A DNA stretch of 5,118 nucleotides from a virus (taxonomy: Duplodnaviria; Heunggongvirae; Uroviricota; Caudoviricetes), in the IMG/VR virus record IMGVR_UViG_3300039366_000147, positions 1 through 5,118 of that record; one strand, given 5' to 3'. The position numbers and the translations under genes were made by a program. Numbering within the stretch: the stretch's first letter is position 1; each line of letters begins with the position of its first letter. The notes below the pieces were generated by a model. The model searched no databases. It saw nothing but the letters and a program-made list of their open reading frames with translations, and had not been told where the DNA came from. Below, piece by piece: positions 1 to 5,118 of the stretch.

Positions 1-644
1 GTATAGACACGAAAACCGCGCAGAAGGATAAGTTCGGCGCGGGTAAGAACGGTTTTACCCGTGGTAACCCCCAGACTGGCACGCCTGCCACCGATCTGGA
101 TGATGACTACTTTGATATGTTGCAGGAAGAACTCTGCAGCGTGGTGGAGGCATCCGGTGCCAGCCTGGAGAAGGCGCGGCACGACCAGTTGCTTACCGCG
201 CTTCGTGCGCTGCTGTTAAGCCGCAAGAATCCGTTTGGCGATATCAAATCGGATGGCACGGTGAAAACAGCTCTCGAAAACCTTGGTTTGGGAGAAGCGG
301 CGAAAAGGGATGTGGGTACAGGAGAAAATCAGATACCGGATATGTCAGCCTGGAAAAGAAATCCGAGTTCTAATCGCTGGAGAAAATTGCCTGATGGAAC
401 CATCATTCAAATGGGAATATCAGCATCAGGGCCATTAGGCTCACCTGTAAATATCACCCTGCCGATATCTTTCAGCAATACCAATTATTGTGTTGTTGCA
501 TCGTACGATAATGCACGGTCAGGTGTGTCAACAATGGTTAGTTTTGCAGCATTACCTGTTTCACCATCGCAATTTTCCCTGATGTCATCTGTGACTGAGC
601 AAGGAATAAATCCTTTTGCTTACTGGATTGCTTTTGGAGATTGA
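1..644 (+). CDS. Phage tail fibre protein, distal portion (5' end outside window; codons in phase from nt 3); the part after the crossover site is variable cassette 1
   Basis: Frame is open from the window edge to TGA at 642..644. It sits 3 nt upstream of a tail-fibre-assembly gene (GGAGA at 637..641, ATG at 648). The left crossover site lies in frame and encodes ENLGLGE. The gene-order logic is that of Mu S-U and e14 stf-tfa. Confidence 0.8.
271..296. repeat. Left crossover site of the invertible segment (gix/pix/hix-like, 26 bp)
   Basis: CTCTCGAAAACC-TT-GGTTTGGGAGAA. It matches the reverse complement of 2129..2154 at 21 of 26 positions, including a perfect 14-bp run (283..296 against 2129..2142). 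It has the AAACC-NN-GGTTT architecture I recall for Din-family sites. Confidence 0.7.
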
Positions 645-647
645 TAA

Positions 648-1067
648 ATGGACAGATACTTCTATTCACAAAAAGAAAATGGTTTTTTTACCGATTTAAA
701 TAAAGCACCTTCAGATGCTGTTGAGATAACCACGGATGAATGGCTATCACTACTGGATGGTCAGGATAATGGCATGAAAATAGTCAGCAATCAGGAGGGA
801 TATCCGGTTTTGACAGAGCAACCACCTTTATCAAAAGAAAACCTTATTGCATTGGCAGAGTTGAAAAAAGGAAAACTTATTAATGAAGCCAACGAGCACA
901 TGAACAGCAGGCAATGGCCTGGTAAAGCGGCTATTGGTCGTCTGAAAGGTGAGGAACTGGCGCAATATAATTTGTGGCTGGATTATCTGGACGCACTGGA
1001 GCTGGTCGATACTTCCAGTGCGCCAGATATTGAATGGCCTACGCCTCCGGCAGTTCAGGCCAGATGA
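648..1067 (+). CDS. Tail fibre assembly protein (Tfa/U-like chaperone)
   Basis: 139-aa ORF with the C-terminal motif DTSSAPDIEWP that I recognise from Tfa proteins. RBS GGAGA lies 6 nt upstream, directly coupled to the fibre gene. Confidence 0.8.
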   Translation: MDRYFYSQKENGFFTDLNKAPSDAVEITTDEWLSLLDGQDNGMKIVSNQEGYPVLTEQPPLSKENLIALAELKKGKLINEANEHMNSRQWPGKAAIGRLKGEELAQYNLWLDYLDALELVDTSSAPDIEWPTPPAVQAR

Positions 1068-1641
1068 TATCCGGCGCGGTGCTGGTATCTGTTACCGTCA
1101 CCGCGTCAATGTAATCCAGCACGGCGTTAAGTCGGGTTGTTTCTGCCTGCGTCAACTTCCGTCCGGCCTGCAATTTCAGTTGAATCAGACTAATGGAAGC
1201 CATTGCAGTATCAATCAGTGACTGACGTTGTGCTTCTGCCGCGTCTACTGCGGCGCTATGCTGTGCCTCGGTATCCGTCACCCATTTCTCACCATCCCAT
1301 TTATCGTATGGCGTTAACGGGGCGATAGTGGTTGTATTATCAGGGTAATCACCCGGAACTGTGATTTCTTTTGATTCTCCTGTTTCGGTGCTAAAGACGA
1401 TTTCACCGCGATGGTCTGGCACATATTCCCATGAGTTAAAATCTGCAGATCGGCAGATTGCATAACCAGCTTTGTATGCGCCTGGGGCATCTAAACAGGA
1501 ATATGCCGGAATGCCGACACCAATAGCAAGATATTCAGTTGAAGCTGAAATATATTCCCGACTCATGACATCAAAGTTATAAACAGTAATTTCTCCTGCC
1601 ATAGTGGCAATTAATTCACTGTTTAATTCTGCGTTATTCAT
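1039..1641 (-). CDS. Tail fibre assembly protein, second copy, for the alternative cassette
   Basis: 200-aa ORF ending in DTSTAPDIIWPELPEA, the same Tfa C-terminal motif. Its ATG (1641..1639) overlaps the stop of the upstream - strand fibre cassette by 1 nt. Its 3' end overlaps the + strand tfa by 29 nt. Confidence 0.8.
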   Translation of the reverse strand: MNNAELNSELIATMAGEITVYNFDVMSREYISASTEYLAIGVGIPAYSCLDAPGAYKAGYAICRSADFNSWEYVPDHRGEIVFSTETGESKEITVPGDYPDNTTTIAPLTPYDKWDGEKWVTDTEAQHSAAVDAAEAQRQSLIDTAMASISLIQLKLQAGRKLTQAETTRLNAVLDYIDAVTVTDTSTAPDIIWPELPEA

Positions 1642-2141
1642 TATGCAGCCCTCACGATATAGTTAAATGCAATATTCCGTGGACGGGTTTCATTTATCCC
1701 ATATGCTGTTGTTCTCTGATTCCCGACAAAATATCCATTTGGATTAGAAGATACAGAATAATCATCAAAATCAAGAGGGCTATCAGCACCCGGCGTCAGG
1801 CTTGCAATATATCCTCTTCCCATAACTTCTGATGCTGGTATTTCTTTTGTACGATAATCACTAACTCTGAAGAGCTGCCCTTGGTGGGTGTGTGATTCCA
1901 CTCCTCCATTCTGAAGACTTAGCAAGGCACGTACAGCATCAATACCACGCCCGTCATCCCAGCCACGAATAAACTCACCACGTAAATCAGGCAATTTATT
2001 TGTCGGATAAGCCTTTGCCAGTTCCGGGTATTCTTCAGCAGAAAAAGCGGCACCGTTGCATTCAGCCAGCCTGTTGGCGGAGTGGCTGAAGGCCACGGAA
2101 CAGGCACACCAACCGGTAATGCAGAGCCTTCTCCCAAACCA
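1641..2141 (-). pseudogene. Alternative tail-fibre distal cassette, promoterless, with an apparent -1 frameshift near 2060..2065
   Basis: Encodes a tail-collar-like motif (ECNGAAFSAEEYPELAKAYPTNKLPDLRGEFIRGWDDGRG) in the frame of the 189-aa ORF. The frame set by the crossover site is instead that of the 87-aa ORF (INVGLGEGSALPVGVPVPWPSATPPTGWL...), which stops at 1919. The two frames meet at TGGCTGAATGCAACGG. Confidence 0.6.
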
Positions 2142-2154
2142 ACGTTTATGAAAA
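2129..2154. repeat. Right crossover site of the invertible segment
   Basis: TTCTCCCAAACC-AA-CGTTTATGAAAA, about 55 bp upstream of the invertase ATG. It is the inverted partner of 271..296. Confidence 0.7.
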
Positions 2155-2966: not shown

Positions 2967-4280
2967 CTAATCTATATCACTTAAAGTACCTTTAATTTCC
3001 CCTTGCTCAATATCCCCTAACCCAAGTTTACCTACTAATACATTACATTGCATGATGACTGAAACGGTCATATCTCGACCAGATACATCTTCCTCTTTAT
3101 AATGCTGTCCGCTTACATTTGCAGAAAGTTCAGCATAAAAACCATTATTAAAGTAGTATTGCTCAACAGTAATATCATCTATATTTTCAAAAATAGTGTC
3201 TGATTCTGCAATGGCACCTGAGACACCATCGCTATCAAAAGCATCAAATGGATTTTTTTCAAACTCCTCTCTGCATAACTCCGCAAGATGATCACCAGAA
3301 ATTAATTTAAATGGGATGTTGTCAAATAACATATCAAGATGATCAAAAATTAAATCTGCAGAAAAATCTTCATTGTCAGAGTTTTCTTCCAGCACTATTT
3401 GTTCAAGACGTTTGGCTAATTTGTCATCATAATAGACATATTTGACTTTGCTTAAAGTTTCATTATTGAAATTTTTGTCATCAAGAAGTTCATTAAAATC
3501 CGTATACCCAAAAAGTGAGGAGGCAATTAAACCTAATGTTTTAAGTGATACATGTATGTTGTCACTTCTGAGACTTTCATCTATTTTTAGCATGAGATAA
3601 TATGCAGATGGAAATCTATTGGATGCATGAACAGCTCTGGCTTTTGCACTATCGTTTTCAAATCTTATTTTTTCCAACTCTGCTTGTTTATTTTTTTTAT
3701 CTAGCTCAAGCTTTGATATTGATTCTTTGTTCTTTGCTGCTTGTGTTATAGCCTCTTGTTCTTCAGCTTTGCTTTTCGCTTCAATAGCCTTGACTTCCAG
3801 TCTCAAACTTCTTTGTCTTATATGTTCAAGTATTAATTTCCGTTTATCAATATCTTGCTGAACCAATTGTTCAAGAAATTGTTTGTTTGGATTAGTCCGT
3901 AATCTCTCTTTATTCAGTTCTTGTTGTTGCTTGATTTTTACTAATTCTATATCAATAGCCTGTTTATGTAGTTTCTTTTGAGATAAACTTTGTACTGTGT
4001 TAATAAAAAGAGAAAGCCATGGGAAAATAAATAAGTAAAAAGAGGCGGCAAGAAATGGGAAAACAAATAACTCATTCCACCCTAATATTGGCGTTCTTGA
4101 AATATACTCATAAAATAAGTTTATTCGCTCTGAAGTTTTTCCTTCACCCCAAAAAAGGAGAGATAGATGGTTCCAGTTACATATTAGCCATGAAAAAATA
4201 AAAGCGCCAACAAATGGATCGTTTATCTTGGTTTTAGCGTTTCCTGCTAACGAAGTAATTATATCATCTAAAAATTTCAT
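2967..4280 (-). CDS. Hypothetical protein, 437 aa: N-terminal membrane anchor, central coiled coil, acidic C-terminal domain; function unknown
   Basis: Longest ORF in the window, uninterrupted, in a visibly AT-rich block. GGTGA lies about 10 nt upstream of the ATG. Hydrophobic stretches at about residues 22-36 and 70-94, a K/E/Q-rich heptad-like region at about 100-210, and a D/E-rich C-terminal segment of about 220 aa. No family recognised. Confidence 0.75.
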   Translation of the reverse strand: MKFLDDIITSLAGNAKTKINDPFVGAFIFSWLICNWNHLSLLFWGEGKTSERINLFYEYISRTPILGWNELFVFPFLAASFYLFIFPWLSLFINTVQSLSQKKLHKQAIDIELVKIKQQQELNKERLRTNPNKQFLEQLVQQDIDKRKLILEHIRQRSLRLEVKAIEAKSKAEEQEAITQAAKNKESISKLELDKKNKQAELEKIRFENDSAKARAVHASNRFPSAYYLMLKIDESLRSDNIHVSLKTLGLIASSLFGYTDFNELLDDKNFNNETLSKVKYVYYDDKLAKRLEQIVLEENSDNEDFSADLIFDHLDMLFDNIPFKLISGDHLAELCREEFEKNPFDAFDSDGVSGAIAESDTIFENIDDITVEQYYFNNGFYAELSANVSGQHYKEEDVSGRDMTVSVIMQCNVLVGKLGLGDIEQGEIKGTLSDID

Positions 4281-4321
4281 TTTTTCAAAATCACCAATTG
4301 GTTATAATTAATATAATGGAT

Positions 4322-4349
4322 TGTGCAGTAAAATATAATTTACTGCACA
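4322..4349. promoter_or_regulatory. Perfect 11-bp inverted repeat with 6-bp AT spacer in the promoter region of the 437-aa ORF (candidate operator)
   Basis: TGTGCAGTAAA-ATATAA-TTTACTGCACA, 42-69 bp upstream of the ORF start codon. No adjacent T-tract on either strand, so it is not a terminator. Confidence 0.35.
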
Positions 4350-4992
4350 TCATTCTAGGTTTTTGCATAAAATGTTCAATTGTTTTCAAAGATAGCTCCT
4401 CAATTAATATATGACGACTTAAATATCACCATACTCTTGCTAATCATTGATTGCTTTTCAAGCGATAAACACCAAAAAATACCGTATAATATTCACTCAT
4501 TTTATCTGCGTAATCAACTCGGTCTGCAGCTGTTACACCTGAGCTTGTGAAACGTCAGAGTAATACGGTTTCTTTACGCATAGTATGCTGTTTATACAAT
4601 CTCCATGGGGAAGTTAATTGGTTATTAGGGGCACTTGTGTATAACGAACAACTAAAGATGACAAGCCATATGGTAAGTTGTATCCAGGCGGTTATTGAGA
4701 TGCTCTCTAATTATTAATGCAATGTCGACTTTGCGATATCTTCTTTCTTTGAGAATCGGGTTGCCGAATGCATGTGGTTGATCTTTGTGCTGTGTTTGTG
4801 TGGTGTATGATTTTTAATCGATTAATAATAAGAAATAATAGGGCTAAGATTGTTGTGTGTACAAATGGTTTTTGGTTACAAATACACCTACTGATCATGT
4901 TCTGCTATGCTCTGATACCTCCAAAATGTACAATCAGCGGCATGAATTTTTCTTTGTACATATGATTGTACATAATCAAAGAGACAACAATT

Positions 4993-5118
4993 ATGACAAG
5001 CCTTTTGGCCGCAGAGGTAGCGAAAAGAAGAACCTTTGCAATTATTTCTCACCCGGACGCCGGTAAGACTACCATCACCGAGAAGGTGCTGCTGTTCGGA
5101 CAGGCCATTCAGACCGCC
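4993..5118 (+). CDS. prfC: Peptide chain release factor 3 (RF3), N-terminal 42 codons; continues beyond the window
   Basis: Translation [42 protein letters not shown] contains the GTPase P-loop AGKT and matches the E. coli PrfC N-terminus apart from residues 3-8. AAAGAGA RBS lies 8 nt upstream. G+C rises sharply here. Confidence 0.9.

Follow-up and report, generated by a model that had tools for sequence, protein, structure and literature searches.

The window, by which we mean the whole stretch of 5,118 nucleotides analysed, is E. coli DNA. Its left 2.4 kb run in the classic order of Din-type segments and of e14: a constant 5' part of a tail-fibre gene, then Sv-tfa, then tfa'-Sv' on the opposite strand and finally a serine invertase gene. 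This bears out the sequence-only reading, which had proposed a Din-type invertible tail-fibre switch here. The features, in order along the window, are the following.

1-283, + strand: constant 5' part of the tail-fibre gene; the start codon (ATG) is 7 nt before the first position of the window, with about 96 codons up to the crossover
271-296: left crossover site (pix type, 26 bp), reading CTCTCGAAAACCTTGGTTTGGGAGAA; outer half 271-282, central TT 283-284, inner half 285-296
284-644, + strand: variable fibre cassette Sv, with a Gp53-like C-terminal domain (Pfam PF21882, E 4.9e-13)
648-1067, + strand: tail-fibre assembly chaperone for Sv, 139 aa (Pfam Caudo_TAP, 2.3e-26; PHROG 188)
1039-1641, - strand: tail-fibre assembly chaperone for Sv', 200 aa (Pfam Caudo_TAP, 1.7e-32; 89% identical to K-12 tfaE)
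1641-2141, - strand: alternative fibre cassette Sv', with a tail-collar domain (Pfam Collar), split into two ORFs
2129-2154: right crossover site (pix type, 26 bp), whose reverse complement is TTTTCATAAACGTTGGTTTGGGAGAA; inner half 2129-2140, central AA 2141-2142, outer half 2143-2154
2143-2182, - strand: short leader ORF, MMPFARYFCIFINVGLGE, which starts outside the segment and reads into whichever cassette faces it
2209-2408, + strand: truncated pin-type serine invertase gene, a 5' stump that keeps about 66 native codons; beyond them the ORF continues in non-pin sequence to 2526
2230-2293: candidate recombinational enhancer, with two G-N13-C 15-mers, GTGTCAACAAATGAC at 2230 and GTGCAGGATGCGAGC at 2279

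The start of the constant part is taken from the RefSeq coding sequence (locus L001), and its residues 1-100 match PHROG tail-fibre N-terminal families. In the orientation of the window (orientation A), Sv is in frame with this constant part and translation gives an intact 216-aa fibre. The two chaperone genes converge, with a 29-nt overlap. Sv', in turn, is inactivated by the loss of one nucleotide; positions 2061-2062 are TT, where K-12 and other intact relatives have TTT (catttcag). Restoring the missing T in silico yields a 263-aa Sv' fibre, whereas the unrepaired sequence in the opposite orientation (orientation B) would give a 170-aa out-of-frame product. The leader belongs to an ORF at 1919-2182 on the - strand and is the counterpart of the 5' end of e14 stfE; in the isolate APEC E123, which carries orientation B, it is fused to Sv to form a Gp53-like protein of 132/133 aa. 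Frames are preserved across both junctions and two Caudo_TAP genes are present, as expected if inversion swaps the distal fibre domain while the constant part is kept. The in-frame readings of the sites also hold, with ENLGLGE lying in a + strand ORF (117-644) and INVGLGE in the - strand ORF at 1919-2182.

The two sites had been described as inverted copies with a perfect 14-bp run. The run, TTGGTTTGGGAGAA (14 nt, or 15 nt with the next G), is common to both sites and occurs exactly twice, once per strand; in 200 shuffles with up to two mismatches allowed, matches to this 14-mer averaged 0.08 and no shuffle contained two. The arms at 278-297 and 2128-2147 are complementary at 19 of 20 positions and form the best inverted repeat found in a search of positions 1-2600. 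The AAACC-NN-GGTTT pattern, claimed for both sites, is perfect at the left one only: the right site (AAACCAACGTTT) has one mismatch in one arm (AAACG), which is present in K-12 e14 too. The cores are complementary as proposed, TT (283-284) and AA (2141-2142) on the + strand, and so are one dinucleotide once both sites are read in the same direction. Identical central dinucleotides in one sense are a requirement for religation after a 180-degree rotation.

Comparison with published sites places the pair precisely. Both 26-mers are letter-for-letter the two sites of the K-12 e14 P segment (left site at locus L006 3779-3804, right site at L006 5606-5631), and the inverted repeats of e14 are given as TTGGTTTGGGAGAAGG, with the same core as the sites here (PMC12529663, 2025). 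The left site is also identical to the left gix site of phage Mu at 18 of 26 positions, counted by eye on the Mu genome sequence. From centre to centre the segment measures 1858 bp against 1827 bp in K-12 e14, in line with the earlier estimate of about 1.86 kb and of a size near that of the P segment.

A functional invertase gene adjoining one site is expected of Din-family segments and is absent at this locus. The Pfam Resolvase match of the stump covers positions 2-76 of 145 only, and alignment to intact pinE genes places a deletion of about 345 bp at the junction 2408/2409. The DRLGR motif, the remainder of the catalytic domain, helix E and the HTH DNA-binding domain have all been lost with it, and RefSeq labels the stump 'incomplete; missing C-terminus'. 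A sigma-70 consensus scan gave nothing near the intergenic region between pin and the leader ORF, and overall it fell below shuffle expectation.

Does the stump still contribute to the reaction? In the Din family, inversion depends on the invertase, on Fis and on DNA supercoiling, and a cis-acting, Fis-dependent enhancer is expected in the 5' coding part of the invertase gene. K-12 pinE, the pinE of a second APEC E123 prophage at dusA and Mu gin contain the same two 15-mer motifs, each likewise 94 nt away from the crossover site, and this positional conservation suggests that the stump may still supply an enhancer in cis. The strict Fis-core pattern matches only one of the two 15-mers. Fis sites have a 48-bp spacing, which the candidate 15-mers, 49 nt apart from start to start, do not match. 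In the case of Hin, the enhancer is situated in the part of the gene that encodes the N-terminus, at a distance of about 100 bp from hix (PMC2724282; PMC3798978).

The surroundings of the segment can be read from APEC E123, where it lies in a defective e14-like prophage with terminase, ymfR and ymfQ genes and a shortened portal gene that runs straight into the baseplate genes. Because this prophage is without head and tail-shaft genes, the fibre would be unusable by any virion. Homology to the K-12 chromosome starts only inside prfC, from which it follows that the prophage is inserted at the 5' end of prfC and provides the first ~17 codons of that gene. The 437-aa ORF that neighbours the pin stump has no match in PADLOC, Pfam or NCBIfam. 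The best match in a phage collection, vB_EcoM-606R2, was considered as an intact reference and rejected; it is a prophage-like record that contains host genes and another truncated invertase. The proposed role of the region as a host-range switch is thus its ancestral function and not necessarily its present one, given the invertase stump, the frameshifted Sv' and the defective prophage.

Orientation heterogeneity, which the sequence-only reading had put forward as a test of the switch, is found among natural assemblies, with the exchange mapped inside the sites; the evidence is a comparison between assemblies and not within a single culture. The draft assembly GCA_003328175.1 (locus L010), found by look-up through the neighbouring 437-aa gene, is identical to the window at 5118/5118 positions in the same orientation. 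APEC E123 (NZ_CP126955.1) is also identical at 5118/5118 positions, and only after positions 284-2141 have been reverse-complemented. In the uninverted comparison 1442 positions differ, all of them between 298 and 2127, which confines the breakpoints of the inversion to 283-297 and 2128-2142. Eight genomes with 64% coverage (H1-H8) had been candidates for the opposite orientation, and they were rejected as such a set: only APEC E123 among them has the cassettes of the window, the others having the flanks and the pin stump in common with it and different cassette sets.

A second cassette set at the same locus narrows the exchange further. It too occurs in both orientations, one arrangement in L012 and L017 and the other in L013 and L016, and the L012 segment matches that of L013, once reverse-complemented, at 1745 of 1746 positions. 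In this set, a G-to-T SNP in one inner half-site (GGTTTtGGAGAA) lies in the right site in L012/L017 and in the left site in L013/L016, while the outer, flank-specific difference AAACC versus AAACG stays in place. Since the SNP travels with the segment and the flank difference does not, the exchange is confined to the 7 nt TTGGTTT, which include the central TT, the place of cleavage by Din invertases. Counts of left junctions in complete genomes (16 of A type, 514 of B type) mainly reflect how common each cassette is and do not give an orientation ratio. The presence of different cassette sets at the same truncated locus indicates that homologous exchange with sibling prophages also remodels the region.

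Taken as a whole, the region, which belongs to the defective e14-like prophage in prfC, is very probably a paralogue of the e14 P segment and thus an invertible tail-fibre segment of the Din family, Pin/pix type. It is orphaned and would still be flipping, most probably by Pin acting in trans. A serine invertase would cut both 26-bp sites at the central TT and rotate the 1858-bp segment, so joining the constant 96-codon head to one of two tips, the Gp53-like one of Sv, which has the 139-aa chaperone, or the collar-type one of Sv', which has the 200-aa chaperone. Expression would be limited to the cassette that faces the constant part, and orientation A is predicted to give the intact 216-aa fibre and orientation B the broken 170-aa one.

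What, then, turns a segment whose own invertase gene is a stump? The 30-nt junction of the pin deletion, TGGACTGGCTGGGATTATATAAAACCGCAG, is identical in 10 of the 10 loci found through the 437-aa gene (L010-L019), with any cassettes and in any orientation, and again in APEC E123 as loci L001 and L008. The 1-nt frameshift of the window-type cassette is likewise present in isolates of both orientations. As deletion and frameshift are both common to the two orientations, at least some of the inversions post-date the loss of the local invertase.

A source for the enzyme can be named in one strain, APEC E123, where a sibling prophage, at dusA, carries an intact 184-aa PinE flanked by both 26-mers; at 177 of 184 positions this protein is identical to K-12 PinE, an enzyme with activity shown by experiment. 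At megablast sensitivity, this dusA gene has the sole pinE-type 3' half in the APEC E123 genome. PinQ, PinR and PinE can each invert the e14 P segment in trans, and inverted P segments were found in 33% of 562 E. coli genomes (PMC12529663). The comparative data therefore point to an intact Pin from another prophage, in APEC E123 the pinE product of the dusA prophage, as the enzyme that most probably flips the prfC segment in trans, in a reaction that probably uses the enhancer kept in the pin stump.

Alternatively, the segment may be a fossil, with genuine pix sites and locked since the truncation of its invertase, both orientations then being older than the truncation. The local pin is clearly dead, and in K-12 the P segment is reported to be locked during normal growth once pinE has been deleted (PMC12529663), as this explanation would have it. 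Against it stand the single 30-nt deletion junction, found in all loci and in either orientation, and the private 1-nt frameshift, which the cassette set of the window carries in both orientations while being otherwise 100% identical. Were the orientations older than the truncation, the same deletion and the same frameshift would be needed twice, and a locked segment is for these reasons very improbable.

It is also conceivable that no site-specific recombination took place, and that the orientations arose by RecA-dependent exchange across the short inverted repeats, or through import from a sibling prophage whose segment lay the other way round. The inverted repeat of 15-20 nt does offer some homology, and the replacement of cassettes at the locus means that homologous exchange does happen there. 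However, efficient RecA exchange usually needs homology longer than 15-20 nt, and an exchange interval of at most 7 nt that coincides with the cleavage core of the invertase is not expected of RecA. Import fares no better: the dusA copy of APEC E123 is ~96% identical over the first 1560 nt, divergent beyond them and without the frameshift, and hence it cannot have donated a 100%-identical inverted segment. Either form of this explanation is extremely improbable. That the two orientations are assembly mis-joins across repeated prophage sequence, which the two related invertible segments of APEC E123 and the draft state of GCA_003328175.1 might suggest, has a next to negligible probability, given that assemblies which are closed or of megabase scale (CP126955.1, CP101858.1 and a 5.2-Mb contig of GCA_949767355.1) show both orientations, that both states occur for two cassette sets among the matches listed, and that the half-site SNP moves together with the segment, as it should.

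For this orphaned segment, the closest point of comparison is the P segment of K-12 e14 (stfP-tfaP / tfaE-stfE / pinE), with its identical 26-bp sites, the same gene order and a similar size. The constant part is 94% identical to the 5' part of stfP, the tfaE homologue 89%, and positions 2061-2408 of the window (348 nt, from the proximal end of Sv' across the right site to the end of the pin stump) 94.5%. Both e14 and the prfC prophage are defective and have ymfR and ymfQ as neighbours. Differently to e14, which is inserted at icd, the prophage here is inserted at prfC, its pin is reduced to ~66 codons and its Sv' is frameshifted. The receptor-binding tips of both cassettes are also unlike those of e14, which makes the segment a mosaic, and downstream of pin lies the uncharacterised 437-aa ORF in place of mcrA. 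The G segment of Mu (Gin/gix) shows the same architecture, Sc-Sv-U / U'-Sv' / invertase, but it is ~3 kb long, has TC/GA as its central dinucleotide and belongs to a viable phage with an intact gin.

Invertases of the Din family that act in trans include PinQ and PinR on e14 and Fin of Fels-2 on the H segment of Salmonella (PMC12529663). In these pairs the invertase of one prophage flips a segment elsewhere, as the PinE of the dusA prophage would do for the prfC segment. The targets of PinQ, PinR and Fin keep an invertase of their own, whereas the comparative data suggest that the prfC segment is fully dependent on supply in trans.

It is possible that the orphaned segment is not just phage DNA in decay and has been kept by the host as a phase-variable element, driven by the invertase of another prophage. 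The 133-aa fusion of leader and Gp53-like tip in orientation B resembles StfE2, its leader-fusion counterpart in e14, which is reported to block adsorption of phage T2 (PMC12529663). Such a co-option is unlikely; if it were true, retention of the enhancer-bearing pin stump would keep the switch responsive, and the whole would amount to a cross-prophage regulatory circuit for phage defence.

With sites identical to those of e14, the segment joins a family that is already known in depth, and reading of the sequence alone had located a genuine recombination switch, crossover sites included. Orientation also explains why RefSeq calls the fibre gene 'frameshifted' or 'incomplete' in some genomes and intact in others. 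The case adds little to the Din-invertase paradigm itself; what it provides is a clean natural example of a segment that would have gone on flipping after the loss of its own recombinase, and it supports the recent view that different cryptic prophages contribute their Pin paralogues to a common pool of trans-acting enzymes.

At the chromosomal boundary of the prophage, similarity to K-12 starts only within prfC, with identity from about position 5044 of the window, and the first prfC codons encode a 13-residue stretch unlike that of K-12 (MTLSPYLQEVAKRR). The prophage therefore appears, from this comparison, to occupy the 5' end of prfC as its integration site, and seems to provide prfC with a surrogate promoter and N-terminus. 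It would be the mirror image of e14, which sits at the 3' end of icd. The features from this junction to the pin stump are:

about 4281-5043, prophage/prfC junction region (prfC start at 4993)
2967-4280, - strand, 437-aa ORF
2736-2775, - strand, hairpin (18-bp stem) with a T run after it, 3' of the 437-aa ORF
2523-2732, - strand, DinI-like gene, annotated as frameshifted in RefSeq

The 437-aa ORF lies in AT-rich DNA (29-37% GC) and encodes a protein whose N-terminus is hydrophobic and whose long middle part is charged and helix-like. Pfam, NCBIfam and PADLOC give no match; PHROG alone does, with families whose function is unknown. In the assembly collection, 277 blocks index this exact protein. 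The ORF occupies the cargo slot 3' of pin, which in e14 holds mcrA and in relatives a GIY-YIG (LEM-3-like) protein or an SDH Clp-fold proteinase, so that by analogy it is a candidate for either a defence gene or a moron. The hairpin looks like its intrinsic terminator. Of the DinI-like gene only a 52-aa ORF (2542-2700) is left, which has a DinI Pfam match.

In K-12, deletion of pinE is reported to lock the P segment of e14 despite the presence of PinQ and PinR (PMC12529663). A full pinE deletion would also take out the candidate enhancer inside the 5' end of the gene, a loss that may explain the locked segment, whereas the pin stump of the window retains this stretch (2230-2293). Two further pin truncations, independent events, were found at related loci:

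3701-4051 of L007 (strain FACU 2024), pin stump, 351 nt of the 5' end kept
4582-4896 of L020 (vB_EcoM-606R2), pin stump, 315 nt of the 5' end kept

The 5' part bearing the candidate enhancer is kept in every pin stump seen. Such retention could be no more than a consequence of deletions that ran into pin from its cargo end.

Among loci with the flanks of the window (L008, from APEC E123, and L012-L017, recovered through the gene for the 437-aa protein), the invertible segment at prfC carries at least three different cassette sets, and the pin-deletion junction is identical across all of them. Whole cassettes evidently undergo replacement at this locus; the presumed route is homologous recombination with sibling e14-like prophages, running through the conserved constant part of the tail-fibre gene and the 5' end of pin.
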